34,029 bases of DNA from a virus (Duplodnaviria > Caudoviricetes), in the IMG/VR virus record IMGVR_UViG_3300042807_000447, positions 1 to 34,029 of that record, one strand, 5' to 3'. This document shows positions 7,625-22,501 of this stretch, one piece after another. Numbering within the stretch: position 1 is the first letter of the stretch; each line of letters starts with the position of its first letter. Under the pieces are notes generated by a model. It did not search any database and had not been told where the DNA came from. It worked only from the letters and a program-made list of their open reading frames with translations. A program made the translations under genes and the position numbers.

Positions 7625-8644
7625 ATGTTTATAGTTATTGAAGGCACGGACGCCTCAGGTAAGTCATCGCTTATCGAGGCAGTTCGGCAACAGCTTATAG
7701 AACGCTACCCTAACGAGCAACTGTCAGAGTTTCACAAGGGCAAGCCTGGCGAGGAGACTCGCCGCTGGGTTCTAAACGACTACGTTACGTCAATTGAAAA
7801 GCGCAACTGGTTGCGCTCCGTTGGTCTATCAGATCGTTGGCACTGGGGCGAGGTAACATACGCTCCAAAGTATCGCCCACACACAAACAACGATGGCTAC
7901 GGTTTACTTGGCAAGGCTGGCTGGCGCTGGGTTGAGCTGTTTCTTATGTCCCGTGGTGTTGCCCAATTTTGGCTTTATCAACCCTTAGAAGTGATCCAAG
8001 CGCGTCTAGAAGCCCGCGGAGATGAGTTCGTAAAGACCGATGACCTGCAGGAAATACTTGCACAATACGTTACCGCGTCTAACGTTTCTGTTCTTTCCGA
8101 CATCCTAAAACCAGACAGCGACAGCGTTGAACAGATACCAGCACTCGCAACCTACATAATTGACGTTGCTGGCCAGGTTGAAGAGTGCGCACGTCATCTT
8201 GAGCTATTCCCGTATTACATCGGAAACCCTAAGCCTAAGGTTCTACTCGTTGGCGACACACGCAATATAACTAAACGTTATGGCGAGGAAACTACCCTAC
8301 CTTTTATGCCAGTCGATGGCAACTCCGCAGAGTATCTACTTACCTCGCTGCCTGACGATCTCTGGCGCGACTGTGGAATCGTAAACATAAACGACCCAGA
8401 CGTCAAGCTTTCATTCAATGCTCTATGGAACCAACTAGGTTTCCCAAAGATAGTTGTACTCGGGCGTCTTGCCGAGAAGACACTGGCATCAATCCCAGTG
8501 GCTGAAGACTACTACACCGTGTTGCCTCACCCGCAATATGTGCGTAGGTTCTTTAACAAGACAAAGGAAGAATACGGACAGGCAATCGCACGGGTTGCCA
8601 ACGGCGAGACAAAAGGTAAGGAAGAGACATGGACACTGCGGTAA
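7625..8644 (+). CDS. Thymidylate-kinase-like dNMP kinase fused to a uracil-DNA-glycosylase-fold domain
   Basis: N-terminus has the IVIEGTDASGKSS P-loop, DRW motif and RLEARGDE lid. C-terminus has PKVLLVGDTRN, LPF, IVVLGRLA and LPHPQY, matching the UDG superfamily motif order. Confidence 0.75.
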   Translation: MFIVIEGTDASGKSSLIEAVRQQLIERYPNEQLSEFHKGKPGEETRRWVLNDYVTSIEKRNWLRSVGLSDRWHWGEVTYAPKYRPHTNNDGYGLLGKAGWRWVELFLMSRGVAQFWLYQPLEVIQARLEARGDEFVKTDDLQEILAQYVTASNVSVLSDILKPDSDSVEQIPALATYIIDVAGQVEECARHLELFPYYIGNPKPKVLLVGDTRNITKRYGEETTLPFMPVDGNSAEYLLTSLPDDLWRDCGIVNINDPDVKLSFNALWNQLGFPKIVVLGRLAEKTLASIPVAEDYYTVLPHPQYVRRFFNKTKEEYGQAIARVANGETKGKEETWTLR

Positions 8645-9492
8645 TTGAAATTAAGGACGGCGTCAACGGATATGTTGACCTAGTTCAGCACGTTTTGCGA
8701 CATGGCAAGGAGGTTGCTCCGCGCGGTCAAAAGACGCTTGAAATCGAAGATGCAATTATTCGCATTGACGACGTATACAACACTCTGCCAATGAACGTAA
8801 AGCGTAAGGCAGTCCCAGGTATCGGTGCCGTTGAGGCGTGTCAGCTTCTATCTGGCACGAGCTTCCCTGATCTTGTAATGATGGTTGGCCCACAGTTTAA
8901 GAACTACGCTGAGGATAACGGTGTGTTTCATGGAGCATACGGACCTCGCACAAATGGGCAGTACCACGCAGTTATTGAGCGTCTAAAGAATGACCCGGAC
9001 TCACGTCAGGCAGTCGTTACTATCTGGAATCCACAGTATGACCTTCAGTGGAACAAGCGTGATTATCCTTGCACGATCCTGCACCAGTTCCGTATCCGTG
9101 ACAACAAGTTGAACATGAGCGTTTACATGCGCTCAAACGATGTTTGGCTTGGTGCAGCCTATGACTTCTTCCAGTTTACACGCGTGCAGATCGCAATGGC
9201 ATCTGTCCTCGGAATTGAGCCTGGCAAGTATGCTCACCACGTTGGATCACTGCATATCTACGAGCAGCACTACGGCGTGGCTGAAGAACTAAAGTACACC
9301 GACAAGTTTACTGACATTCCTGTTATTACAGGACGCACATGGAACGAGGTTCAGTCAAGCTCTGTTCTTGCTCTGCATGGCAGCGTTGATCCAACCGCAT
9401 ATGTGCGTCTAACTGAAAACGAGAAATGGTACGCCGATGCAATGAAGGATGCCATCGAGAAGAACAAGGCTAAGGAACAGAATGACAAGTAA
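8629..9492 (+). CDS. Thymidylate synthase homologue, predicted dCMP-modifying (dCMP hydroxymethylase-like)
   Basis: AYGPR, DSRQAV, catalytic PC (C148), MRSNDVWLGAAYD with Asp179 at the base-specificity position, and GSLHIY. Confidence 0.8.
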   Translation: MDTAVIEIKDGVNGYVDLVQHVLRHGKEVAPRGQKTLEIEDAIIRIDDVYNTLPMNVKRKAVPGIGAVEACQLLSGTSFPDLVMMVGPQFKNYAEDNGVFHGAYGPRTNGQYHAVIERLKNDPDSRQAVVTIWNPQYDLQWNKRDYPCTILHQFRIRDNKLNMSVYMRSNDVWLGAAYDFFQFTRVQIAMASVLGIEPGKYAHHVGSLHIYEQHYGVAEELKYTDKFTDIPVITGRTWNEVQSSSVLALHGSVDPTAYVRLTENEKWYADAMKDAIEKNKAKEQNDK

Positions 9493-9664
9493 CCAGGATA
9501 TTCCGCAGTCCAGCGGAATAAGCGAGCTAAAGGTTGCGGCGATACAACTTCATGAAATGTACATGGAGTTTCGCGGCGCTGGTTTTACTCGTAGGGAAGC
9601 CTTATACCTTGTTGGAATAATTGTAGTTGAAGGGTCAGCAAAAGACAACGATGAGCGAAACTAA
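9482..9664 (+). CDS. Small hypothetical protein
   Basis: ATG at 9482 after AAGGA; overlaps both neighbours. The LHEMYMEFRGAGFTRREAL pattern resembles small actinophage proteins. Confidence 0.65.
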   Translation: MTSNQDIPQSSGISELKVAAIQLHEMYMEFRGAGFTRREALYLVGIIVVEGSAKDNDERN

Positions 9665-10130
9665 CACACCGCGTCCTTCCTGGGACAGCACCTGGATGCA
9701 TGTAGCTGAGACAATAGCTAAGCGTTCACGTTGTACCCGTGCGCAGGTTGGTGCAGTTGTAGTGTCTAGTCAACAGCGCATTAGCTCAACTGGGTACAAC
9801 GGTGCACCTGCTGGTTGGCCACATCAAAGCGACTGCATTGACTGGTGCCCACGCGCTAAAGGCGATGCCCCACTTGATCAGTTCTACGACGCGTGTCCAG
9901 CAATCCATGCTGAGGCAAACGCACTTCTATACGTAGATCGTTCTCAGGTCGAGGGTGGAACAATATATGTCACAGGTGCGTGTTGCATGCAGTGTGCAAA
10001 GCTCGTATCTAACTCAGGCGTATCACGCGTTGTCATGAAGGTGCGCAAGATCGACAAGCACCGTCACCCTGAAGAGGTTGTTGCATTTTTAGCTAAGTCA
10101 GGTTTAAGGGTGGAGACTATTGATGACTGA
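9651..10130 (+). CDS. dCMP deaminase (zinc-dependent cytidine deaminase fold)
   Basis: RPSWD, AKRSRC, VGAVVV, STGYNG, HAEANAL and CMQC motifs. Confidence 0.92.
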   Translation: MSETNTPRPSWDSTWMHVAETIAKRSRCTRAQVGAVVVSSQQRISSTGYNGAPAGWPHQSDCIDWCPRAKGDAPLDQFYDACPAIHAEANALLYVDRSQVEGGTIYVTGACCMQCAKLVSNSGVSRVVMKVRKIDKHRHPEEVVAFLAKSGLRVETIDD

Positions 10131-11946
10131 TGGTTTAGGTGATGTAAAACTCCACCTTGTAAACAACGTTGAGGAAGCACAAAACTTTCTGCGTTGGCTA
10201 GGTGAGCGTCGTCCACACAACGCTATTGCTATTGACACTGAAACTGGTGAAAATCCAGGAGGTGCTCGTAAGGATGCGCTTTCTCCATGGCACGGGCAAC
10301 TACGTCTAGTCCAGGTTGGTGATGGGCAGCAAGGTTGGTCAATTCCATGGAAGGAATGGTCAGGTGTTTTCTACGAGGCAATGAACAAGTTTGATGGACC
10401 CGTTGTCTGTCACAACATTGCGTTTGAGGCGCGTTGGTTTGATGTTCACTCGCACTGGAAGATGCCGTGGGAACGCGCACACGACACAATGATTATGGCG
10501 CACATCATTGACCCACTTGGTTCTGGTGCACTAAAGAACCTTGCGGCTTTGCACGTTGATGGTCGCGCAGTTGCATTACAGGAAACACTTGATATTGAAC
10601 TAGCAAAGAACGGCTGGACATGGGGAACTGTGCCTGTAGAGTTTCAACCGTACTGGGCATACGGTGCACTTGACACAGTTCTAACAATGCGCCTATGGGA
10701 AATGTTCTACGAGAAGTGCGGTCCTAACGGCGCATATCATCGCCCATATGAACTTGAAATGGCTGCCCGTAAGATCGTTACCCGCATGGAGATCAACGGC
10801 GCACGCATTGACCTCGATTACTCTAAGAAGAAGTTTGAAGAACTAAGCACATATGCCGATACGGTAAAGAACTGGGCAAAGCAAACCTATGGTGGTGTCT
10901 CGATTGGCAGCAACCAGCAACTAGTGCGCCTGCTTGAAAAGCTTGGTGCAGAGATTAACTCATACACGCCTTCTGGTCAAAAATCAGCCGACAAGGACGA
11001 GCTAAAGTTTCTTAGCATCAACGGTTCTCCTGAGGTTCAGCAGCTTGCGGATCTTGTTCTAAAGCAGCGCAAGGCTGACAAGCTTGCCAACACTTACTTT
11101 GCAAACTTTATCAACGATAACGTTGATGGCTTTGTGCACCCATCAGTAAAGACCCTTGGTGCTCGCACATCGCGTATGTCGATCCAAAACCCTGCACTAC
11201 AGACATTGCCTAAGGGTGACGACACGGTTCGTACCGCGTTTATTCCAAAGGACGAGGATCACGTCATTATTACGTCTGACCTTGACCAGGTTGAGTTTAG
11301 AATGTTTGCGTCATTGTCACAGGACCCAAATCTCATCACCTTGTTTAATCGCGCTGACGCGACTGGCTCAGATCCGTTTACCGAGATTGGTCGCGAGATC
11401 TATCAAGATCCAACAATGCAACGTTCTGATAAGCGACGCAATCTTATCAAGGGAACGGTATATGGACGTCTCTATGGTGCAGGCGTATCAAAGCAGGCAC
11501 TAACCGCAGGTGTACCTGAAGGACAGATGCGCACCGTATCTGACGCGTTTGATGAGCGTTTCCCAGGCATGTCGTTCTTCCAAAAACAAATTGAAGATGC
11601 AGGCATGCGCCGTCTAAAGTCTGAAGGACAAGGATATGTGTACACATGGACAGGTCGTCGCATTCCTTGTGACGAGGATCGTGCATACACGCTTGTCAAC
11701 TATCTAATTCAAGGTGGAGCCGCCGAGGTGTTCAAGCAAAACCTTATAAAGCTTGACGCAGCAGATCTAACAGAACTGCTAATCGTCCCGGTACACGATG
11801 AAATTGTTCTTAACGCACCACGTAAGGACGCTCATGAAATCATGCAAGTCGTGAAGGAATGCATGACTACAACCGAAGGCTGGGCAGTACCTCTTACTTC
11901 TGGCATTGATGGACCAATGGAAAACTGGGGAGAAAAATACAGATGA
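10123..11946 (+). CDS. polA: DNA polymerase family A with 3'-5' exonuclease, no 5'-3' exonuclease domain
   Basis: Exo motifs IDTET, HNIAFE and YGALD. Polymerase motif A DLDQVEFR, motif B RNLIKGTVYGRLYG, NYLIQG, and motif C VHDE. Confidence 0.95.
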   Translation: MTDGLGDVKLHLVNNVEEAQNFLRWLGERRPHNAIAIDTETGENPGGARKDALSPWHGQLRLVQVGDGQQGWSIPWKEWSGVFYEAMNKFDGPVVCHNIAFEARWFDVHSHWKMPWERAHDTMIMAHIIDPLGSGALKNLAALHVDGRAVALQETLDIELAKNGWTWGTVPVEFQPYWAYGALDTVLTMRLWEMFYEKCGPNGAYHRPYELEMAARKIVTRMEINGARIDLDYSKKKFEELSTYADTVKNWAKQTYGGVSIGSNQQLVRLLEKLGAEINSYTPSGQKSADKDELKFLSINGSPEVQQLADLVLKQRKADKLANTYFANFINDNVDGFVHPSVKTLGARTSRMSIQNPALQTLPKGDDTVRTAFIPKDEDHVIITSDLDQVEFRMFASLSQDPNLITLFNRADATGSDPFTEIGREIYQDPTMQRSDKRRNLIKGTVYGRLYGAGVSKQALTAGVPEGQMRTVSDAFDERFPGMSFFQKQIEDAGMRRLKSEGQGYVYTWTGRRIPCDEDRAYTLVNYLIQGGAAEVFKQNLIKLDAADLTELLIVPVHDEIVLNAPRKDAHEIMQVVKECMTTTEGWAVPLTSGIDGPMENWGEKYR

Positions 11947-12404
11947 TACACGTTTTAGCAGTAGACCCAGGCAAGGCAACCGGAATTGCCTTGTTCAAGT
12001 TTGAAGGACAGGAACCAGAGCTAGTCTGGTCAGGCGAGTACCAGCAACACGAATACGCAAAGCCGATCCGTGAGGCAATCTACGCGGCAAAGGCAATGGG
12101 ATACGTAATCGACATAACCTGTGAAAGATTTACCATCAATGCCCAAACTGTAAAGAACTCACAGGCTCCATACTCACTTGAGCAGATTGGTATCCTCAAG
12201 CAGATCATGATGGATAACGACCTAAACCACGAAAAGATCGCGTTCCAGTCACCTGCGGATGCAAAGGCAATGTTCCCAAACCCTGCCCTAAAGAAGCTGG
12301 AATACTGGCACAAGGGCGGCGAAGGTCACGCCCTAGATGCGATAAGACACGGATTACTACGGTGTGTCAAGCTAGGATGGAAGCCAACACGCCTGTTACA
12401 ATAG
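11943..12404 (+). CDS. RuvC-like Holliday junction resolvase
   Basis: VLAVDPGKATG, CERF, and a C-terminal HALDA; RNase H fold acidic residues; follows the polymerase. Confidence 0.75.
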   Translation: MIHVLAVDPGKATGIALFKFEGQEPELVWSGEYQQHEYAKPIREAIYAAKAMGYVIDITCERFTINAQTVKNSQAPYSLEQIGILKQIMMDNDLNHEKIAFQSPADAKAMFPNPALKKLEYWHKGGEGHALDAIRHGLLRCVKLGWKPTRLLQ

Positions 12405-12412
12405 TTTCAACA

Positions 12413-12458
12413 TACTAAGCAAAAAAGTAGTTTGCTTTAGTAAAATTCCTGATAGTAT
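12413..12458 (+). promoter_or_regulatory. Inverted repeat followed by an extended -10-like element upstream of the helicase
   Basis: TACTAAGCAAA (12413-12423) pairs with TTTGCTTTAGTA (12431-12442) with a one-base bulge; TGATAGTAT at 12450-12458. Confidence 0.5.
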
Positions 12459-12488
12459 GTATTTACGTAATGACGAAAGGATGGCGCG

Positions 12489-14294
12489 GTGCCAGTAGAA
12501 GTAGAGCTTGATGAATCAGGCAAGAACATAATCATCGCCACCGAGTGGCGGTACAAAGAGTTATGCAAGACCTTGCCTGGATCCAAGTGGGACCCTAAGC
12601 TACAGCAATGGCGAGTCCCTACATCATGGGCATCATGTCTTGCATTGCGCTCAACGTTTAAGACCGAGCTTGTGATTGGCCCTGGTTTGGCCGAGTGGGC
12701 TGGCAACGAAATGACCAAACGTATTACCCCAGCGAACGAACTTCGGGTCCTAGAGACCCTTGAGGACGCCTCTAATGAGGACCTATTTCCACACCAGCGC
12801 GCAGGCGTTGCGTTCCTTGCAACTGCAAAACGTGCGCTACTTGCTGACGAACCTGGACTAGGTAAAACAGCACAGGCAATCCGTGCACTAAAGAAACTAC
12901 AGGAAAATGGCGAGGAACCGTTCCCTGCACTAATCGTTTGCCCTAACACGCTAAAGAAAAACTGGAAGCGTGAGTTTGCAAGATGGTGGCCAGACGTAAA
13001 GGTTGAGGTTATCAAGGGATCAGCCAACCAACGCCGTAAGGTATTTGAGGAACAGGCTGACGTATACGTAATCAACTGGGAATCACTTAGATCCCACTCG
13101 CGACTTGCACCTTACGGATCAGTCGCACTTGCTCGTTGCACCGCCTGTGGCGGCCACGATGACAAGGTGACTGAAAACCGCTGCGAGGTACACGAACGCG
13201 AACTAAACACGATTAACTTTAACTCTGTAGTTGCAGACGAGATCCACCGCTCAAAGGAACCAAAGAGCAAGCAATCACGCGCCCTGTGGGCTGCAACAGG
13301 TGATGCACCAATTCGCTTTGCCCTTACAGGTACACCTATTGCAAACAACGTTCTTGATCTATGGTCAATCCTTCACTGGCTTGCACCTGAAGAGTGGCCA
13401 AGTAAAACTCGCTGGATTGACCGCATGGTTGACACAATGTTAAACGCGTTTGGTGGCATGATGGTTCTAGGTGTAAAGCCACACATGCAAACAGAGTTTG
13501 ACGCCACGTTAAATCCACGTATGCGTCGCATGCTAAAGTCGGTGGTGCTTCCTTGGCTACCGGAAATGATGTTCGAGCGACGTGACATCGAGATGTCAAC
13601 AAAGCAGGCAAAGGCTTACAAGCAAATGCGTGATCTTATGATTGCTGAGCTTGAAGGCGGAGATATTGTTACTGCGCCTTCGCCACTAACTCAAACAACA
13701 CGACTGCTGCAGTTTGCAAGCTCTTATGCTGAGATGGACGTTGACGAGACAACAGGTGAAAGCAAGGCACGTTTGACAGAGCCTTCCTGCAAGGTTGATG
13801 CTCTAATGGACGACATCAAGAACGGCGACTTTGGAAATGACAGCGTAGCTGTGTGTGCAGTATCGCGACAACTTATAGAGTTACTTAGCGCAGCACTAAC
13901 AAAGGAAAAGATCCAGCACGGTCTTATCACGGGTGCACAAACTGAGGACGAACGTCAACAAGCGGTTGACGATTTTCAATCTGGCAAGATCAAGTGGATC
14001 TTGTTTACGGCACAAGCTGGTGGTGTTGGAATTACACTTACAGCCGCACGTCGTCTAGTCATGCTGCAGCGTCCGTGGTCTCTTGTAGATCACAAGCAGG
14101 CGTTGGATCGTGTGCACCGTATTGGATCAGAGATTCACGATTCAATCATTGTCACTGACTATGTGACAGAAGGAACAGTCGAGGAGCGCGTCTTGCAGGT
14201 ACTCGAAACAAAGGCAGACAACTTTGAGGCTATCGTCCGCGATAAAGCGCAGTTGCTTGCATTACTCAAAGATGATAAGGCAGGAAACCTATGA
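12489..14294 (+). CDS. SNF2-family (SF2) DNA helicase
   Basis: LFPHQ Q-motif, LLADEPGLGKT Walker A, DEIH, ALTGTP, GGVGITL and QALDRVHRIG. Confidence 0.93.
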   Translation: MPVEVELDESGKNIIIATEWRYKELCKTLPGSKWDPKLQQWRVPTSWASCLALRSTFKTELVIGPGLAEWAGNEMTKRITPANELRVLETLEDASNEDLFPHQRAGVAFLATAKRALLADEPGLGKTAQAIRALKKLQENGEEPFPALIVCPNTLKKNWKREFARWWPDVKVEVIKGSANQRRKVFEEQADVYVINWESLRSHSRLAPYGSVALARCTACGGHDDKVTENRCEVHERELNTINFNSVVADEIHRSKEPKSKQSRALWAATGDAPIRFALTGTPIANNVLDLWSILHWLAPEEWPSKTRWIDRMVDTMLNAFGGMMVLGVKPHMQTEFDATLNPRMRRMLKSVVLPWLPEMMFERRDIEMSTKQAKAYKQMRDLMIAELEGGDIVTAPSPLTQTTRLLQFASSYAEMDVDETTGESKARLTEPSCKVDALMDDIKNGDFGNDSVAVCAVSRQLIELLSAALTKEKIQHGLITGAQTEDERQQAVDDFQSGKIKWILFTAQAGGVGITLTAARRLVMLQRPWSLVDHKQALDRVHRIGSEIHDSIIVTDYVTEGTVEERVLQVLETKADNFEAIVRDKAQLLALLKDDKAGNL

Positions 14295-15235
14295 CAGAAA
14301 TGACGCAAGGACCGTTGCGTATCTCAAACTCAGAGATACAGACCTTCAAGGATTGTCGTCGCAAGTGGTGGCTTAGCTACTACCGTCGCCTAAAGCCACG
14401 TGCGGAAAACATGACAGGCGCACTTGCGCTTGGTTCACGCGTTCACGCGGCGCTTGACGACTACTACAGCAAGGGAACGCCACTGCTTGAGGCGCACCGC
14501 TTCCACGTTGAAAAGGACCGCGCAGTACTTGAGGAACAGATGCGTGATACCTACGACCTGGACTCTGAGGCAGAGCTTGGCCGCATCATGCTTGAGGGTT
14601 ACCTTGACTGGGTTGAGGAAAACGGAATTGACTCAGAGTTGGACATGATCTCTACTGAAGAGATAATCGAGATGCCAATGTTTGACGGCAAGGTTATTCT
14701 TCAAGGCAAGATCGACATGCGTGTTCGTCGCAAGGCTGATGGTGTGCGTATGTTCCGCGACTTTAAGACTGTTGGTGGTTCGTTTACTGACTTTGCGTCA
14801 ATGGCGCACATGAATGAGCAGATCCTTACCTATATGACACTTGAGGCTGCACAGAACAAGGAAGGCGAACGATCAGAGGGCGGTATCTTCACAATGTTGA
14901 AGAAGGTAAAGCGTTCCGCAAATGCTCGCCCGCCGTTCTACGAGCAAATGGAAGTTCGTCACAATGTTTTCTCGCTGCGTAATTTTTGGCAGCGACTACA
15001 CGGCACAGTTAGCGACATGCTAGGTGTGCGCAAGGCTCTCGATGAGGGAGTATCACATCAACTTGTAGCGTATCCGCGTCCATCGCGTGACTGCAAGTGG
15101 AAGTGCCCATTTTTCGCTCTGTGCCCAATGTTTGACGACGGTAGCGCCGTTGAACAAGCACTTAGCGATTCATATGCGGTCGCCGACCCATATGGTTACT
15201 ACGGTAACACAGAAGAGAAAAAAGGAAGTGAGTGA
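14291..15235 (+). CDS. Cas4/RecB-like PD-(D/E)XK exonuclease
   Basis: SNSEIQTFKDCRRKW, GSRVH, GKIDM...DFKT, QILTY, and C-terminal CKWKCPFFALC (4-Cys Fe-S staple arrangement). Confidence 0.88.
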   Translation: MTEMTQGPLRISNSEIQTFKDCRRKWWLSYYRRLKPRAENMTGALALGSRVHAALDDYYSKGTPLLEAHRFHVEKDRAVLEEQMRDTYDLDSEAELGRIMLEGYLDWVEENGIDSELDMISTEEIIEMPMFDGKVILQGKIDMRVRRKADGVRMFRDFKTVGGSFTDFASMAHMNEQILTYMTLEAAQNKEGERSEGGIFTMLKKVKRSANARPPFYEQMEVRHNVFSLRNFWQRLHGTVSDMLGVRKALDEGVSHQLVAYPRPSRDCKWKCPFFALCPMFDDGSAVEQALSDSYAVADPYGYYGNTEEKKGSE

Positions 15236-15238
15236 CGT

Positions 15239-16006
15239 ATGTCAAACGAAGTACAGCGTTCCCTCACAATCATGGTGTATGGAGAGTCAAAGGTTGGTAA
15301 GTCAAGCTTTGCAGTAACCGCACCGTATCCTCGTCTCATGCTTGACGTTGAGGGTGGGCACCGATTCCTACCTATCAACGTAAAGTACTGGGACCCTCTG
15401 CGCGAGGAACCTCCCGTTGCAGATGGAACATGGGACACAGTGGTTGTGACGGTACGAGACTACGATGTAGTTCTCAAATCGTTCCAGTGGCTGCAAACTG
15501 GTAAGCATCAGTTTAAGTCATTGATCATCGATTCAATCTCAGAGCTTCAAGTGAAGTGTATGGATTCAATCGCAGGTACCGAGCAAATGAAGATGCAGCA
15601 ATGGGGTGAACTGCTACGTCACATGGGTGCGCTATTGCGCGATCTACGTGACCTAACAATGCACCCAACACAACCGCTAGAAGCTGTTGTGCTAACTGCA
15701 ATGGCACGACCAGGACAGGACGGTCGCATGCGTCCGTACCTACAGGGTCAGCTAGCAATTCAGGCTCCGTACTTCTACGACATTCTTGGCGCTATAAACG
15801 TTGAGACTGTACCTAACCCTGATCCACTGCAACCTCCGTTCAAGGTTCGTCGCATGTACGTCGAGCGCACAGATACTTATGAAGCTGGCGAGCGCGTTCA
15901 AGGTCGTCTTGGCAAGGTAGTAGAACAGCAAGATCTCGGCATTGAAAGAATGCTGGATATGGTTTTCGGAGAGAAAGCCGCAAGCAAGAAAAAAGCAGCG
16001 TCCTAG
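15239..16006 (+). CDS. Sak4-like AAA ATPase (phage recombination / annealing protein)
   Basis: VYGESKVGKS Walker A, LDVEGG and IIDSISE Walker B; sits between exonuclease and SSB as in Sak4 modules. Confidence 0.8.
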   Translation: MSNEVQRSLTIMVYGESKVGKSSFAVTAPYPRLMLDVEGGHRFLPINVKYWDPLREEPPVADGTWDTVVVTVRDYDVVLKSFQWLQTGKHQFKSLIIDSISELQVKCMDSIAGTEQMKMQQWGELLRHMGALLRDLRDLTMHPTQPLEAVVLTAMARPGQDGRMRPYLQGQLAIQAPYFYDILGAINVETVPNPDPLQPPFKVRRMYVERTDTYEAGERVQGRLGKVVEQQDLGIERMLDMVFGEKAASKKKAAS

Positions 16007-16043
16007 CCAAGTCGGTTAGCGCAATACATAAGGAGAAAACACA

Positions 16044-16613
16044 GTGAGTACACTCAACTGGGGCGACCTGGTAAAGGACGCCGGAGAAGTCGGTGGCAAC
16101 TACGAGCCACTTCCTGATGGTGATTATGACCTTCAGATTATCGAAGCAACTGCAAAGGTTGCACAGTCAGGTAAGACCATGTTTGCCGTAAAGGCGCAGG
16201 TTACAGCAGGAGCGCACGCAAAGCGTCTTGTTTGGGATAACCTAGTGGTTACACCTGACAGTCCTGCTGCGCTTGGCATGTTCTTCCGCAAGATGGCAGC
16301 AGTCGGTCTTGGTCGCGAGTTCTTCGCATCAAACCCAAGCAACGCACAAATCGAGGCAGCTCTTCAGAACCGTACATTCCGTGCACAGATTGGTTCACGC
16401 ACATGGAACGGCTCTAAGAAGAACGAAATCAAGATGTACTACGTTGCAACTGCAGGAGCTACTGGTACTACAGCTGCCGCTGCGGCAGCGCCTGCACCAG
16501 CACCTGCACCTGCCCCAGCGGCAGCACCTGCTCCTGCACCAGCAGCGGCACCAGCACCAGCAGCGGCGGACGTTCCACCAGCTCCACCTGCACCACCAGC
16601 TGCTCCGTTCTAA
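16044..16613 (+). CDS. Single-stranded DNA-binding protein (DUF669-like) with Ala/Pro-rich tail
   Basis: YEPLPDGDY...SGKTM...VWDNL...NEIK pattern, terminal PF, strong AAGGAG RBS, and position after the Sak4-like gene. Confidence 0.75.
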   Translation: MSTLNWGDLVKDAGEVGGNYEPLPDGDYDLQIIEATAKVAQSGKTMFAVKAQVTAGAHAKRLVWDNLVVTPDSPAALGMFFRKMAAVGLGREFFASNPSNAQIEAALQNRTFRAQIGSRTWNGSKKNEIKMYYVATAGATGTTAAAAAAPAPAPAPAPAAAPAPAPAAAPAPAAADVPPAPPAPPAAPF

Positions 16614-16688: not shown

Positions 16689-17900
16689 ATGAAAATCTTA
16701 ATGACAGGCTTTACGGCCTTACAGATCAACACGGAACGACGCACAATACAAAAGATTGACGTTCCTGCGCATGTCGCAAAGGCAATGCAAGACCTCGGTC
16801 ACGAGATTGATTGGCGTAAGGTCACACCTGGCGAGGACCTGTCAGGTTACGACATGGCTTGGATAAATCTTGCACCACTAAACTCGCTAAACGGACGTCA
16901 AGGTGCGATGGGTGCACTTTACACTTTATCTTCAGGATTACCTGCGGTCGGATTTTTTGACGACTGGCAGTTCAACACAGTTTTCAATGGCGCAAAGGCT
17001 CTTATGCGCAAACCGCAGATGCTGTATAAGCACCTTCTTGTTGGCACGGAACATCGCGGTGAAGAGGGCGCAACTTACTTTAGTCGTGCAGATATTGAGG
17101 CAGCGCTTGAGCGTGTCCGTGAGAAGGACCCAGAGGCTGCTAAGAAATGCTACATCGAGCGTTACTACATGATGGACACTGATGAAAGCGTCAAGCCTTA
17201 CGAAAAACAACTAGTGCAGACAGCGATTGACATGCTTGACGCACGTTGGGCTGCTGGTATGGTTCCAGTTTGCCCGATGTATGCGTGGGGTGATAGAACA
17301 GGTGTGCGCAAACGTATGCCAAAGGACGTTGGTCGTATCGAGGCACTTGACCCTACCAGCGTTGTGTTTGACACGCTTGCGGCGGTAACACCAACTCCGC
17401 CAGAGAAGAAGGAAAAGGCTTGGGTACTTGGCGCGTTGATGCCACATGATACTTGGCTTGAAAAGAAAAACCCAGGTTGGCCGGTTGAGATCGTTGGCAG
17501 TCGTAAGCTAATCCGCAAACTTGGTGGACAGCGTCTTGACACAGAGCTTGACGTTCTAAACTTCTACAATGACCGTTGGGGAATTCTGTCACCACCGTAT
17601 CCACATGCTGGTTCAGGCTGGTGGCGTTCACGATTCCTATATGCTGCGCGCATTGGTTCTATTCTTGTCACTGACAAGGGTGAGGGCGATCCGCTAGGTG
17701 ACGCGTATAAGCTAACAATTGCTGACGTTGAAAAGATGAATACCGAGGAACTGGCAGCTGCTGCACAGGCGCAGGCTGACGCATTGCGCCCATACATTGG
17801 AACATACGACATGTTCAAGGATCACATACAGAACATTCTTACTCGTACCATGCAAGAAGACAGAGGACTAAAGCTAAACGCGGATGGAACTAGAGCATGA
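16689..17900 (+). CDS. Putative GT-B fold glycosyltransferase 1 (candidate DNA base glycosyltransferase)
   Basis: Rossmann-like start MKILMTG...AMQDLGHEIDW, FFDDW, and C-terminal GILSPPY...WWRSRFLYAARIGSILVTD resembling the GT-B C-domain R-x-x-x-A-x-x-x-G...TD pattern. Confidence 0.6.
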   Translation: MKILMTGFTALQINTERRTIQKIDVPAHVAKAMQDLGHEIDWRKVTPGEDLSGYDMAWINLAPLNSLNGRQGAMGALYTLSSGLPAVGFFDDWQFNTVFNGAKALMRKPQMLYKHLLVGTEHRGEEGATYFSRADIEAALERVREKDPEAAKKCYIERYYMMDTDESVKPYEKQLVQTAIDMLDARWAAGMVPVCPMYAWGDRTGVRKRMPKDVGRIEALDPTSVVFDTLAAVTPTPPEKKEKAWVLGALMPHDTWLEKKNPGWPVEIVGSRKLIRKLGGQRLDTELDVLNFYNDRWGILSPPYPHAGSGWWRSRFLYAARIGSILVTDKGEGDPLGDAYKLTIADVEKMNTEELAAAAQAQADALRPYIGTYDMFKDHIQNILTRTMQEDRGLKLNADGTRA

Positions 17901-18940
17901 AAAAGATACTTATAACTGGAATGTCCGCGTCACAGGCATCACTAAACGCCAATAGACGCTCGCTTTCCTTTGCAGGTGTAATTCATGATGTTCTTGTTGA
18001 ATCAGGACACGAGGTCGTCATGTGTGACCCACGTGTTAGCTGGTCACTTGAAGACGTTGAAGAATACTCTGCGGTGATTGTTGGTGTCTCACCGATAACA
18101 AGTCTTAGCGCAAACAAGGCATATGGTGCACTAAACCTAATTGACCTTCTGTGGGAAGATCCGCGCCTACGCCTATTAGTTGACGCACCGCACCCGGCAC
18201 AGATAAGTGCCAGTCTACGGTCGGTGCATACTAACCCGGCAAACCTCACTAAGCCTTTTTACACATACCGCCAGGGATATCAGTTAGCTGCCAGCGAAAG
18301 TGTCTCTAGGAGGCTTCTAGGGACAGTAGACAGGCTTCTAAACGATACCTGGCCAGGAACAATCTACCCATCGTTGCCTTGGCGCGATTCATTCCTTGTG
18401 TCTGATGAATTGCCTGCTGGAGCTCGAAGCGGGATAATTGGAATAAATCTAGACTCATTTCTTGTGGCTGAAAGCGCGCCAAAAGGCGACGTTGAAAAGA
18501 TTGCTAAGTGGGTAGCGGACAACAGGACATCTGCCTGGACAAAGAAGGTTGAAAAAACACTTGCACTTCCAGTATCGCCAATGAAACACACGAAGGGTGA
18601 AGATGATAGACAGGTTAGCAGTCAAATTCTGCGATCTGTTGGATCACTGATTTCGCCACACAGGGACGGGACATGGTGGACATATCGCTACATCCAGTCA
18701 CTAAACCTCGGTGTTCCCGTTGCGACTGACTGGAAGGAAAGCCAGCACATTGGTAATTCATGGAGTGTTCTTGCGGCAACAATTGAACACCTAAGTGACG
18801 GTGCGCGACGCGATCTTGCGTGGGATCAGTTGCAGGATTACATGTCGGCAATTCCGCGACGTGAAAATGTTAGAAAGACGCTTGAAGATCTGCTAGGTCT
18901 TCATTCCAAAATAGGAAAGGAAGCATATGCTGTTCGATAG
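17897..18940 (+). CDS. Putative GT-B fold glycosyltransferase 2 (paralogue of the upstream gene)
   Basis: MKKILITG...LVESGHEVV, SPITSL...GAL, and GSLISPH...WWTYRYIQSLNLGVPVATD align with the upstream protein. Confidence 0.6.
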   Translation: MKKILITGMSASQASLNANRRSLSFAGVIHDVLVESGHEVVMCDPRVSWSLEDVEEYSAVIVGVSPITSLSANKAYGALNLIDLLWEDPRLRLLVDAPHPAQISASLRSVHTNPANLTKPFYTYRQGYQLAASESVSRRLLGTVDRLLNDTWPGTIYPSLPWRDSFLVSDELPAGARSGIIGINLDSFLVAESAPKGDVEKIAKWVADNRTSAWTKKVEKTLALPVSPMKHTKGEDDRQVSSQILRSVGSLISPHRDGTWWTYRYIQSLNLGVPVATDWKESQHIGNSWSVLAATIEHLSDGARRDLAWDQLQDYMSAIPRRENVRKTLEDLLGLHSKIGKEAYAVR

Positions 18941-19409
18941 TTGGTTACGCAGAACAAAGGATCTTCAGAGAGATGTTTACTTCATCAACTATGAAGAGAT
19001 GGAGGGCGATAAGGACGCAAATATCCGTCGCCTTGTCGAGTACATGCGGTGGAACATGCTAGCCATTGATGACGAACTCGCAGAGATGCGTCAGGCAATC
19101 TCGTGGAAGCCTTGGCAGCACGACAAACCATACGCAGATCGCGAAGAGATCATCAAGGAAGCGGTTGACGTTTTACACTTTGTCGCAAACATCATTGTTG
19201 CGGCTGGTGGAACAGACGAGCAACTAAACAAGTTCTACGTTGAGAAGATGGAAAAGAACAGGCAACGTCAACTCAATGGTTATAAGGTAAAAGAGATCGG
19301 CGTCAAGTGTGGCATCTGCTCACGCGCAATTGACGACGTAGGTGAAGGCAGACGCCTCGGTGTTTGCGCAAAGTGTGAGCCAATAATCGAAGGAGAAACA
19401 AATGCCTAA
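18927..19409 (+). CDS. All-alpha dNTP pyrophosphatase (dimeric dUTPase / dCTPase-like) with C-terminal zinc ribbon
   Basis: DDELAEM...WKPW...KEAVDVLHF...YVEKMEKNRQRQ family motifs; C-terminal CGIC...CAKC. Confidence 0.85.
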   Translation: MLFDSWLRRTKDLQRDVYFINYEEMEGDKDANIRRLVEYMRWNMLAIDDELAEMRQAISWKPWQHDKPYADREEIIKEAVDVLHFVANIIVAAGGTDEQLNKFYVEKMEKNRQRQLNGYKVKEIGVKCGICSRAIDDVGEGRRLGVCAKCEPIIEGETNA

Positions 19410-19824: not shown

Positions 19825-20012
19825 TGAGAACCACCTTTGAGTTCGAGGCAACTGGCACATCCCACGAGGAACTTCAGCGTAAGGCTGAGGAGCTTGTTGC
19901 ACGATACCTCAACATTGAATTGGATTCGGTTGAGTCCAAGACCGACATTGAAATGAACGTCAAGGCGGAAAATGATGTATTTACCGCAAAGGTACACGTA
20001 AGGATAAAGTGA
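19824..20012 (+). CDS. Small hypothetical protein
   Basis: 62-aa ORF translationally coupled on both sides. Confidence 0.65.
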   Translation: MRTTFEFEATGTSHEELQRKAEELVARYLNIELDSVESKTDIEMNVKAENDVFTAKVHVRIK

Positions 20013-20320
20013 TGAGTGAAGAACAGACAACAAGTAACCCTGCCCGCGTTGAAGCCTTACGTGAAGCTGCCCGTCTAATCAGCGGTGAACGCGACGCGCA
20101 GTACGGAAGCCCTGGAGATAACTTTGCGCGTATTGCAAAGATCTGGTCAGTGGTTCTCGGAATAACCGTCAGCGAGGAAGACGTAGCAATGTGCATGGTA
20201 GGTCTCAAGATGGCGCGCTACGCAAGCAAGTCTGGTTTCCAACCTGACACCTGGATTGACATCGCGGGGTACGCAGGTTGCGGCTACGAGGTTGGAAACG
20301 ACCTGTCCAAAAAGAACTAA
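20012..20320 (+). CDS. DUF6378-like protein (small helical phage protein, often near nucleotide metabolism genes)
   Basis: LREAARLISGERDAQYGSPGDNFARIAKIW...LKMAR...DTWIDIAGYA signature. Confidence 0.8.
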   Translation: MSEEQTTSNPARVEALREAARLISGERDAQYGSPGDNFARIAKIWSVVLGITVSEEDVAMCMVGLKMARYASKSGFQPDTWIDIAGYAGCGYEVGNDLSKKN

Positions 20321-20396
20321 AAACAGTACCATAAATGCAGACATAAGCTGCCTTCTCAGTATAAGGTCCTCTATAGGATAAACTACGGAGGCAACG

Positions 20397-21668
20397 ATGA
20401 GCAACCCTACTTTTGTTGACTGTAATGGCTTAGCTGGGTTTATGAGTCTTGGGCTTATCAAGTCCGGAATGCAAATGGTTGGTCGCACAGGTACGCTGAA
20501 CTTTGGTAACCCGCTTGCTGAGGCAAACAGAAACTACCTTGGAAACCAGTGGGGAACGTTCTTTAGCGATGACTCAGACGAGTGGCCAGTACACAAGGTT
20601 GACGTTGTTGCTGGTTGTCCTCCATGCTCTGGCTGGTCTGTATGGTCAGGTCCTGCAAATCGCGGTCCTGATTCTGCGGCGCACGAGCACACGCGTGCGT
20701 TCATGCGCTATGCCGCAAGAGTAAAGCCTAAGATGATTGCCTTTGAGTGTGTGCAGCCCGCGTACACAACTGGGCGTGCGGTTATGGTTAAGTACCGCGA
20801 CATGGTCGAGGAACTGTCAGGCAAGAAGTACGACCTATACCACGTCAAACATAACAACCTTCAGCTTGGTGGATTCTCATATCGACCTCGCTACTTCTGG
20901 GTAGCAGTTGAATCCGGAATGAAGTTTGGCGCTGCGGTGACAGAACCAACTCGGCTTCCACGTATCATGGACATCATCGGTGATCTTGCAAAGCTTCCAC
21001 AGACATGGAATCCGCAGCCGTACCTAGACGAACCTGGTCCATACGTAAAACACCTAAAGTCAAAGACCGGAACAGTCAACGGTCACATTGGTAAGGAAAG
21101 TATTCACACCCAAAGAATCCAGGAAGTGTTTGATCTTATTGGCAACACTGGTTGGCCAGGCAACGGTGATCTTGGATCTGCGGTGAAGAAGGCCGTTGAC
21201 ATGAACGGCGGAAAGTTTCCACAGAAGTGGATTGACATTGAGCCACGCCTACGCCGCCGCGACTTTAAGCTAGGTTTCTCCCAGCCGTATCGCTGGAAGG
21301 AAGATCACTGGTGTAACGTGCTAACAGGCTCCGCGCTCGAGGGTGTAATTCACCCAACGGAACCAAGACTTATTACACACCGTGAGGCTGCACGCATGCA
21401 AGGCTTACCTGACGACTGGGACATTGAAGGTGCAAAGGATTACTCAAGCCTAAAGGCTGTATGGGGCAAGGCTGTTCCATTGCAGGCTGCCACATGGCTT
21501 GGAGAGGCTCTCACTGCCTCCCTGAGCGGACAACCTAACGGTGACCAAGGTGAACTAATCGGCGAGCGCGAATACCTATTAGACCTTGATAAGGGCTTTT
21601 CTCGACATGCGGTGAAAAGAAAGTACTACCCTGAGGCAATTGAAACCGTGGTGCCAAGTGACAAGTGA
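20397..21668 (+). CDS. Divergent DNA C5-cytosine methyltransferase homologue with altered cofactor-binding motifs
   Basis: Motif IV GCPPCSGWS, motif VI FECV, motif VIII YRPRYFW, motif IX RLITHREAARMQGLPD, motif X WGKAVP; motif I degenerate (DCNGLAGF). Confidence 0.85.
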   Translation: MSNPTFVDCNGLAGFMSLGLIKSGMQMVGRTGTLNFGNPLAEANRNYLGNQWGTFFSDDSDEWPVHKVDVVAGCPPCSGWSVWSGPANRGPDSAAHEHTRAFMRYAARVKPKMIAFECVQPAYTTGRAVMVKYRDMVEELSGKKYDLYHVKHNNLQLGGFSYRPRYFWVAVESGMKFGAAVTEPTRLPRIMDIIGDLAKLPQTWNPQPYLDEPGPYVKHLKSKTGTVNGHIGKESIHTQRIQEVFDLIGNTGWPGNGDLGSAVKKAVDMNGGKFPQKWIDIEPRLRRRDFKLGFSQPYRWKEDHWCNVLTGSALEGVIHPTEPRLITHREAARMQGLPDDWDIEGAKDYSSLKAVWGKAVPLQAATWLGEALTASLSGQPNGDQGELIGEREYLLDLDKGFSRHAVKRKYYPEAIETVVPSDK

Positions 21669-21942
21669 GAAGAACACATACCCTTGCTGCGAGCGTTGCT
21701 GGGTAAAGGACAACTCGCGTTGGGAGCCAGACGGCGTCAGTGAACAGGGTGAACTTACCACCAAGTTAACGGCGGTCGCGGTTCCGGTGTTTCTTCAACT
21801 CGGTACCGTGAACATCTGCTCAACCTGCGGTGACGTAACGGTTGTTGGCATCTACCGTGATCTTGAGGAGGACGAGGTCCAATATGACGTTGATCCACTT
21901 GCGGTTGCAGATGGCGACGAGATACCACCGTTCCTGATATAA
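21640..21942 (+). CDS. Small putative zinc-binding protein
   Basis: CERC...CSTC pairs and an acidic tail; overlaps the MTase 3' end. The start may be the GTG at 21658. Confidence 0.6.
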   Translation: MKPWCQVTSEKNTYPCCERCWVKDNSRWEPDGVSEQGELTTKLTAVAVPVFLQLGTVNICSTCGDVTVVGIYRDLEEDEVQYDVDPLAVADGDEIPPFLI

Positions 21943-21973: not shown

Positions 21974-22501
21974 GTGCAAACATTCATGCAGCAGACAGAC
22001 TCGTTCGAGCGCATTGCCGCGGAGCTTGATAACAAGCGCCTACACAAGCAAACCCTTGAAGGCTGGCAATGTCTACTTGCTCTAACCAAGCTTAACCCAC
22101 AAGGCGAGTTCCGCGACCCTAAAGGCTGGGTCAACCACCCTGTTGCGCACATGTGGCGTGGGCACGAAGCCCTGCTAGTTTCCTACCTTGCCGCGACATA
22201 TTTTGAGTGGCGTAAGCGTGGCTTCAAGTCAACCATGCTTGAAAAGATCTACGGCACATTTGACATTGCAGTCGACCGTGGCTTGATATCACCGGATATC
22301 ACCTTCCCGATATGGATGTCGGACAAGGACAAGTTTGAACAGGTAGCGGCAACACACCGTGTATCACTGCTGCGCAAGGACTACGCCTGGTATTCACAGT
22401 TTGGCTGGGCAGAAGACCCAGGCGAGCGCCCTCCGTACTACCAGTACCTATGGCCTGACGCAAACGGCAACTTATACCTCGGTACCTATAACAACATGTA
22501 G
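21974..22501 (+). CDS. Pyrimidine-dimer DNA glycosylase / DenV-like protein (MSMEG_6728-like family)
   Basis: MQTF...LDNKRLHKQTLE...GWVNHP...MWRGHE...EWRKRG...THRVSLLRKD...YLWP signature. Confidence 0.8.
   Translation: MQTFMQQTDSFERIAAELDNKRLHKQTLEGWQCLLALTKLNPQGEFRDPKGWVNHPVAHMWRGHEALLVSYLAATYFEWRKRGFKSTMLEKIYGTFDIAVDRGLISPDITFPIWMSDKDKFEQVAATHRVSLLRKDYAWYSQFGWAEDPGERPPYYQYLWPDANGNLYLGTYNNM

Follow-up and report, generated by a model that had tools for sequence, protein, structure and literature searches.

A phage C5-methyltransferase-fold enzyme with a rebuilt cofactor pocket, tied to a dCMP hydroxymethylase and possibly editing hydroxymethylcytosine

The 34,029-base freshwater virus fragment analysed here (IMG/VR record IMGVR_UViG_3300042807_000447; hereafter the window) has the same gene order as the 129 kb Actinomycetia phage DSL-LC01, a metagenome-assembled genome (MAG) according to the title of its paper. 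At 20397-21668 the window encodes an enzyme with the fold of DNA cytosine-C5 methyltransferases (C5-MTases), in which the catalytic residues are intact and the pocket for the methyl donor S-adenosylmethionine (SAM) has been rebuilt. What does such an enzyme do in a phage whose DNA is predicted to hold hydroxymethylcytosine (hmC)? We estimate a probability of roughly 0.47 that it works without SAM on hmC in the phage's own DNA, where it would edit the hydroxymethyl group through exchange or removal. This reading fits a hydroxymethylase-type thymidylate-synthase (TS) homolog in 51 of 52 family genomes, the lack of a shared cofactor synthase and the rebuilt pocket. A preliminary description of the locus had proposed either a natural non-methyl transferase, using a carboxymethyl or other donor, or cofactor-independent hmC editing; the latter proves a good fit to the gene context.

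A conserved catalytic core and a rebuilt cofactor pocket

The open reading frame follows a GGAGG at 20387-20391 and translates without stop codons into 423 amino acids (aa) comprising the C5-MTase fold and a target-recognition domain. Its features are:

20397..21668, + strand: C5-methyltransferase-fold enzyme with rebuilt cofactor pocket, 423 aa (PF00145, E 5.7e-17)
20418..20438, + strand: motif I DCNGLAG, Asn10 for the SAM-contacting Phe and Leu12 for the conserved Gly (profile alignment)
20484..20492, + strand: motif II RTG, Arg30 and Gly32 where most relatives carry Lys-x-Glu (alignment)
20625..20627, + strand: catalytic Cys77 (PPC), codon TGC (homolog alignment)
20745..20747, + strand: Glu117 of motif VI (ECV), codon GAG, a cytosine N3/N4 contact by homology
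20883..20891, + strand: Arg163-x-Arg165 of motif VIII (YRPRYF) (homolog alignment)
21468..21470, + strand: Lys358 at the motif X Asn position (WGKAV), codon AAG (alignment)

An AlphaFold2 model built from 117 sequences has a mean predicted local distance difference test score (pLDDT) of 95.7. Among the matches listed it resembles C5-methyltransferases only, with Z scores of 29.6 for DNMT1, 28.9 for M.HaeIII, 26.3 for M.HhaI and 23.4 for the carboxymethyltransferase CmoX (8YF3), and the top matches among those listed are the maintenance methylases DNMT1, MET1 and ZMET2. An ESM Atlas search with the enzyme returned PF00145 clusters only.

We counted conservation in a close set, whose 121 rows are the query with its top 120 of 269 homologs, and in a distant set, in which the query was joined by the top 150 of 947 cluster representatives and non-gap rows were counted. 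C77, E117, R163, R165, G32 and K358 are each present in 121 of 121 close rows, which confirms the earlier view that the catalytic Cys, Glu and RxR are kept. In the distant set Cys77 is found in 125 of 127 rows, Glu117 in 140 of 141, Arg163 in 143 of 146 and Arg165 in 146 of 146, while the Lys358 position holds Lys in 140 of 148 rows and Arg in 3 more. The family profile aligns with M.HaeIII without gaps in motifs I and X, with GKAV over GNAV, so the rewritten motif I and the Lys at the motif X Asn position stand as first described. Judged by homology, the residues for flipping a cytosine-type base and for Cys addition to C6 are kept in the enzyme.

Given such degenerate cofactor motifs, the protein might be a non-catalytic hmC-binding protein or a relic. 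We regard this as highly improbable, in view of the near-invariant Cys77, of purifying selection on the gene (proportion of nonsynonymous differences, pN, 0.15-0.21 vs 0.62-0.71 for synonymous differences, pS, in 6 of 6 pairs) and of a frame that is split in just 1 of 80 close viral loci. A separate contig of 1008 bases, possibly from the source sample itself, spans 20664-21671 with zero differences. Decay or sequencing error as the cause of the motif changes is ruled out by conservation, by pN/pS and by this identical contig.

Motif I of the window enzyme reads DCNGLAGFMSLG, with NGLAG replacing the FxGxG SAM loop of canonical C5-MTases. Across the family the Phe position holds Gln, His or Asn, and the Gly position is Phe, Leu or Tyr in 121 of 123 distant-set rows. 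In solved enzymes the ribose of SAM binds at this glycine, where any side chain would be in its way. The Leu, Phe or Tyr found here is likely to block SAM and, as far as the sequence tells, the usual SAM uptake appears impossible for the enzyme. The motif II acid, reported earlier as absent, is indeed replaced by Gly32 in the window branch; the wider family retains the Glu in 83 of 126 rows (a plain register count with a few mis-set rows; 79 of 120 in a second count).

A 120-row tree shows two separate branches in which Phe/Lys/Glu, the combination of 58 rows, has given way to Leu/Arg/small (27 rows), as would fit internal packing. We read this twice-arisen change as repacking inside a pocket that the protein may fill itself, although a ligand switch would look alike. 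The rebuilt pocket could, for example, hold another host cofactor, such as NAD(P)H, a nucleoside diphosphate sugar or a SAM relative, with which the enzyme would reduce or substitute hmC. The family has acquired new conserved residues near the pocket (GFG, Asn44 and Trp63), its switch from an acidic to a small residue together with Lys to Arg resembles NAD/NADP switches, and some members are sporadically fused to class I methyltransferase or HMUDK-helical domains. Nonetheless, the bulky motif I residue sits at the ribose site, and we found no shared cofactor synthase among the genes present in at least 5 of 13 whole genomes (by BLASTP clustering, which very divergent proteins escape). We consider another cofactor quite unlikely. 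Most long forms of the family carry a helix-turn-helix-like tail, which is often encoded instead as a separate next gene.

Could the enzyme be an ordinary SAM-dependent methylase that makes 5-methylcytosine on leftover C? Fold and catalytic residues are intact, the motif II Glu persists in most of the family, and public annotation agrees. According to the available text of PMC13288465, M.MpeI N374K and M.CviPI Y205K/R are engineered carboxymethyltransferases, and engineered Lys/Arg variants, including those of M.CviPI, still methylate with SAM; Lys alone therefore cannot exclude methylation. However, replacements affect Phe and Gly of motif I, Asn of motif X and, in the window branch, Glu of motif II, and the 423-aa protein scores 25.9 bits with TIGR00675 (dcm), below the cut-off of 100.65. 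Moreover, an ordinary methylase would have no reason to need a hydroxymethylase, and a TS homolog was found in 0 of 5 tested records with canonical Asn-type C5-MTases. The enzyme is probably something other than an ordinary methylase, for which we see a poor chance, and the public annotation of the family as such is probably wrong. In the portions available, the GMA2 and DSL-LC01 papers take the family member for a protective methylase, a jumbo-phage survey names DCMs and gives no detail, and a bioRxiv paper on phage glycosyltransferases holds no passage on the family. No study of the family turned up in the literature searched, which was thin on subscription papers.

The hydroxymethylase partner and the modified base

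The main clue to the role of the enzyme is another gene of the window:

8629..9492, + strand: thymidylate-synthase homolog with dCMP-hydroxymethylase signature (best PDB hit CMP 5-hydroxymethylase, E 8e-25)

Its Asp145, Asp171 and Asp179 correspond to positions 143, 169 and 177 of E. coli ThyA. In this numbering, the accessible part of PMC13326640 states that Asp177 selects dCMP, that an acid at 143 leads to hydroxymethyl and that Asn169 marks hydroxylases. Based on this signature, hmC is predicted in the phage DNA, with C5 already occupied.

We examined 52 genomes with the family, namely the longer contigs among about 300 fetched loci, picked for length and spread. Exactly one TS homolog is found in 51 of them, the miss being a 64% fragment, and all 30 genomes that are at least 90% complete have it. 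Asp143, Asp169 and Asp177 are present in 51 of 51 TS homologs (49 by pattern, 2 by eye). The hydroxymethylase of phage Kurnik is of another type, 51% identical to T4 gp42, so that the link with the enzyme is seen for two types of hydroxymethylase. The recombinase also occurs, at 41-69% identity, in eleven Microbacterium and Arthrobacter records that are without the enzyme family; in the cultured phages Pumpernickel, A3Wally and Racecar, which have the same replication module, we found a TS homolog in 0 of 3 and a C5-MTase in 0 of 3.

The family, of more than 100 clusters at 50% identity, is viral: a scan of 185,579 prokaryote genomes turned up a single full-length member, on a MAG contig of 17.6 kb, and one 41-residue match. 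Among 50,697 annotated phage records there are 15 carriers, comprising 13 Gordonia records (GMA2, Sixama, Forza, Mareelih, BlueNGold, Boopy, GodonK and Phendrix), Kurnik and DSL-LC01. The motif X Lys is present in all four named examples that were aligned.

Two further phage types, the first from an unrelated phage group, pair an altered C5-MTase homolog with a hydroxymethylase. Bacillus phage G gp301, annotated as DNA cytosine methyltransferase (JN638751.1:219303-220583; L427:7304-8584, minus strand), has 383 homologs and matches the family profile with a probability of 99.5. In rows of this type the motif I Gly is Phe in 118 of 120, motif X has Gln in 120 of 120 and the motif II Glu is kept in 120 of 120. 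Phage G gp319 carries the dCMP-hydroxymethylase signature, and a dCMP-hydroxymethylase-type gene and two annotated glucosyltransferases lie in the neighbourhood of gp301. For viral loci of the gp301 type, the record holds a TS homolog in 8 of 10 cases, the other two records being fragments of 3% and 37%; the signature is Asp/Asp/Asp in 7 of 8, with Glu at 143 in one. The second is a marine T4-like type (L439-L445, L448, L460, L462) with motif I PLIGG and motif X AQNV, which stands beside gp42-like hydroxymethylases and has LEEFF-like C-termini. As read from these alignments, the trait common to the Lys, gp301 and marine types is a bulky motif I residue together with a hydroxymethylase, and does not include the Lys. 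If the SAM-free reading is true, at least these three phage groups would use such hmC chemistry.

The modified base is likely cytosine rather than thymine, since two complete genomes lack a dCMP deaminase, AT-only palindromes are rarer, and the digest pattern of phage AXL3 agrees. Over 17 sequence sets, the observed-to-expected ratio is 0.66 for AT-only 6-mer palindromes (318/480) vs 0.88 for C-containing ones, although the values scatter widely and counts are low in GC-rich genomes; the window has 10 AT-only palindromes where 25.6 are expected. AXL3 has a TS homolog of the same signature, a kinase and a deaminase, and just two of the 37 enzymes used on its DNA cut it, each at a site of A and T alone (PMC7504290, available in part).

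We also weighed hydroxymethyluracil (hmU), formed from hydroxymethyl-dCMP (hm-dCMP) by way of hm-dUMP, because 48 of the 52 genomes have a deaminase and some have ADDT/HMUDK genes of hmU-phage type. ADDT and HMUDK genes are known from hmU phages. The two complete genomes without deaminase and the AT-only avoidance disfavour hmU, which is possible in some lineages. Certain sites are absent altogether: TTAA and ATAT in the DSL-LC01 stretch (L002), AATATT and ATTAAT in G001, and GATC in G025. No k-mer is depleted family-wide that would reveal a shared target sequence or a deamination footprint. CC is depleted (0.68-0.85), yet the same is seen in AXL3, which is without the enzyme.

Candidate reactions and the neighbouring genes

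In the SAM-free editing that we favour, the partner enzyme would make hm-dCMP and so occupy C5 in the phage DNA. The Leu or Phe at the motif I glycine, the lost motif I Phe and an internal Lys/Arg-Glu swap would fill the SAM site. The enzyme would flip hmC and add Cys77 to C6, and Lys358, to judge from the side chemistry of C5-MTases, would serve as acid or base at the CH2OH. Two routes could follow. In exchange, loss of water would be followed by addition of a thiol or amine, with a new base as the product; that the hmC hydroxyl is exchanged for a small host nucleophile in this way is possible, if doubtful. In removal, formaldehyde would leave plain C, a route to which we give somewhat lower odds. 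In work from the Klimasauskas laboratory, SAM-free C5-MTases reportedly add aldehydes and couple thiols to hmC. Release of the hydroxymethyl group of hmC as formaldehyde by C5-MTases without SAM is described in the available text of PMC11347137.

The carboxymethyl lead of the preliminary description found no support. A natural DNA C5-carboxymethyltransferase has been published, SpCmoX of Synechococcus phage S-B43 (PDB 8YF3). As described in the accessible portion of PMC12783734, CmoX has Arg350, holds the adenosine by Phe25, Glu47 and Asp69 and comes with cmoA; the homolog search of that study demanded SPPC plus Arg, and so leaves out the Lys family. A cationic residue confers or accompanies the use of carboxy-SAM in M.MpeI N374K, M.CviPI Y205K/R and CmoX (Arg350). 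The M.MpeI switch, quoted in the preliminary description, is found in the literature; the E. coli Dcm N436K switch quoted beside it was not found in the available text of PMC13288465. The window enzyme has CPPC and Lys instead of SPPC and Arg and has lost the CmoX Phe, Glu and Asp adenosine contacts. In a 56-row quick tree the Lys family (support 99) stands apart from the Arg type (support 100), and C5 is predicted to be occupied.

The synthase gene tells the same. We found cmoA (TIGR00740) in 0 of the 52 genomes or records with the family, the window itself being a 34 kb fragment, and in 0 of the 30 near-complete ones. By contrast, our positive control, 8 records with SPPC/Arg enzymes, gave cmoA-like genes in 8 of 8 (E 7e-22 to 2e-40, below the curated cut-off); 28 other records gave 0 of 28. 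We also searched 301 genomes sampled from the likely host phylum, that of a Coriobacteriia MAG, which we take to be Actinomycetota. There were 4 cmoA-like hits at E <= 1e-15, one of them G086, and 0 over the cut-off. No CmoY-type amide ligase appeared among 45 annotated neighbour proteins, although no search was aimed at the CmoY family. We reject use of carboxy-SAM on gene context (cmoA 0/52 vs 8/8) and pocket residues, and natural carboxymethyl transfer has hardly any chance.

A separate clade of phage C5-MTases also has a motif X Lys, in the form of GKS, GKC or GKA (L440, L446, L454-L456, L458, L461, L466, L468, L471, L475), with Arg in L450. In most of these, motif I is still rich in glycine and motif II retains its Glu; some of the records carry Asp177-type TS homologs, and cmoA was absent in the 5 records tested. 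By their motifs they are more promising than the window's family as candidates for a Lys enzyme able to bind a SAM-like donor.

The modification genes of the window flank its replication module:

7625..8644, + strand: thymidylate-kinase-like protein with uracil-DNA glycosylase (UDG)-like C-terminal part, predicted hm-dCMP kinase (phrog_761, E 5.8e-13)
9627..10130, + strand: dCMP deaminase (PF00383, E 1.2e-20)
10120..16613, + strand: replication module with Pol I, RuvC-like, SNF2 helicase, PD-(D/E)XK nuclease, AAA recombinase and DUF669
16689..17900, + strand: putative DNA glycosyltransferase 1, a lead (Atlas feature score 0.96, T4 beta-glucosyltransferase-like cluster)
17897..18940, + strand: putative DNA glycosyltransferase 2, a lead, paralog of the 16689-17900 gene (same sequence cluster)
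18927..19409, + strand: all-alpha dNTP pyrophosphatase, dUTPase_2/MazG-like (PF08761, E 1.3e-12)
20009..20320, + strand: DUF6378 protein, a neighbour in the freshwater branch only (10 of 51 lineages)

In the freshwater branch the enzyme is followed by a pyrimidine-dimer-glycosylase-like gene (21974-22501; PF03013, MSMEG_6728 family). Common to all 13 whole genomes are six replication genes and, for modification, only the enzyme with its hydroxymethylase and kinase partners. The decoration module, on the other hand, is swapped freely between genomes: one putative glycosyltransferase type is found in 8, two others in 1 and 2, and ADDT with an HMUDK-like kinase in 2, and the three putative glycosyltransferase types have no profile similarity to one another.

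The gene at 16689-17900 has no Pfam, NCBIfam or PDB hit, its top profile match being flavodoxin (E 0.018), and a single-sequence model of the neighbouring putative glycosyltransferase was unusable (pLDDT 34); the DSL-LC01 member of the cluster is annotated as glycosyltransferase in GenBank. Other putative glycosyltransferase labels, likewise leads, rest on adjoining sugar-nucleotide genes. For example, a protein of 420-520 aa without a Pfam or NCBIfam hit (L102:7052-8368 and 25 other lineages) adjoins varied sugar-nucleotide genes (RGP mutase, SIS isomerase, epimerase, nucleotidyltransferase-kinase) and is likely an undescribed DNA glycosyltransferase family. ADDT and HMUDK-like genes occur together with the dCMP-hydroxymethylase signature in L173, L175 and L256 and in G025 and G039 (G039 without deaminase), which suggests amino-acid hypermodification of hmC.

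The place of the enzyme in the core set, whichever decoration module is present, agrees with a different role: a fill-in hydroxymethylase that would find stray C in new phage DNA and, for full decoration, hydroxymethylate it with formaldehyde or methylene-tetrahydrofolate as the source of CH2OH. An all-alpha pyrophosphatase (dUTPase_2/MazG-like or PRA-PH) is present in 46 of 51 lineage-representative loci, mostly directly upstream of the enzyme, and may leave dCTP intact; the best fold matches are maintenance methylases. Yet a fill-in enzyme and a glycosyltransferase could stand alone, whereas the hydroxymethylase is there in 30 of 30 near-complete genomes. The reverse reaction would be expected at low free formaldehyde, and formaldehyde loss is what the available part of PMC11347137 reports. 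We hold fill-in to be unlikely.

Alternatively, the enzyme might act against the host, trapping or deaminating unmodified host C while hmC protects the phage. This would account both for the strict need of a hydroxymethylase and for the independence from decoration, and many partner kinases bear the UDG-like domain. However, the kinase-UDG form also occurs in AXL3, which is without the enzyme, and the LEEFF-like tails of the marine T4-like counterparts, which presumably resemble sliding-clamp peptides, point to the phage's own fork. An anti-host role is improbable in our view. In the window kinase the UDG-like part reads LLVGDTRN ... HPQY, and a homolog has a weak PF03167 match (E 0.009); the fusion possibly repairs deaminated hmC.

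Several observations weigh against SAM-free hmC editing itself. Given the kinship among the actinophage genomes, 51 of 52 does not amount to 52 independent events, and T4, AXL3 and other hmC phages have a hydroxymethylase without the enzyme family. A core gene that is never exchanged looks more like a housekeeping function than like a second decoration. The motif II Glu, kept by about two thirds of the family and throughout the gp301 type, could still bind ribose. In the gp301 type Gln stands at the Lys position, and catalysis may therefore not hinge on the Lys; the methylation retained by engineered Lys variants counts here as well. Full protection of C is also questioned by avoided C-containing sites (in G001 CCATGG 0 vs 10.8 and CGTACG 0 vs 9.7 expected; CAGCTG absent in G035). 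Full replacement of C is in doubt for the further reason that the pyrophosphatase may be a dUTPase only; it gives way to a trimeric dUTPase in 2 lineages.

Comparison with known systems

That C5-methyltransferases can take the hydroxymethyl group off hmC has so far been seen as a side reaction in vitro. If our reading is true, a dedicated enzyme would settle whether an organism uses such chemistry as a main function, might reveal a new DNA base, and could be used to label or erase hmC in epigenome mapping. More tentatively, the family could represent a widespread class of phage enzymes for which the SAM-free side chemistry of C5-MTases has become the natural task, and which couple a host thiol or amine directly to hmC in DNA without an activated donor, giving an undescribed base, or erase hmC at chosen sites. 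Cultured carriers make the question testable: the Gordonia phages GodonK, Phendrix, Sixama, Forza and GMA2 and the Micrococcus phage Kurnik.

By its sequence, the enzyme belongs to the C5-MTase structural superfamily, without the canonical cofactor features and without those that define CmoX. It shares with the canonical C5-MTases of PF00145 (M.HaeIII, M.HhaI, DNMT1/MET1) the fold (Z 26-30), the Cys, the motif VI Glu, the motif VIII RxR and motif IX. Unlike them, it has NGL for FxG, Gly in motif II, Lys in motif X and a score below the TIGR00675 cut-off, and the Lys family is nearly phage-only and tied to a dCMP hydroxymethylase. Like SpCmoX, it is a C5-MTase homolog from a phage and carries a cationic residue where M.HhaI has Asn304; SpCmoX has a non-methyl chemistry, which for our enzyme is predicted. 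The two differ in that SpCmoX has Arg, SPPC, intact Phe/Glu/Asp contacts, cmoA and cmoY neighbours and plain C as substrate, whereas the Lys family has Lys, a rebuilt pocket, no cmoA (0/52) and a hydroxymethylase partner. Engineered M.MpeI N374K and M.CviPI Y205K/R have Lys at or near the same position, but as single changes on an intact SAM pocket.

Phage G gp301 resembles the window enzyme in its bulky residue for the motif I Gly, its altered motif X and the hydroxymethylase-type gene and glycosyltransferases nearby; it differs in its motif X Gln, in the motif I aromatic and motif II Glu that it keeps, and in forming a separate clade. Finally, the glucosyl-hmC pathway of T4 (gp42, gp1, gp56, Cd, glucosyltransferases) follows the same logic, known in the window from genes alone: the hydroxymethylase signature, a kinase and a deaminase are shared, with an all-alpha dNTP pyrophosphatase and putative DNA glycosyltransferases as candidates for the other parts. 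T4 is without the enzyme family, whereas in the set of the window the C5-MTase-fold enzyme is a core gene.

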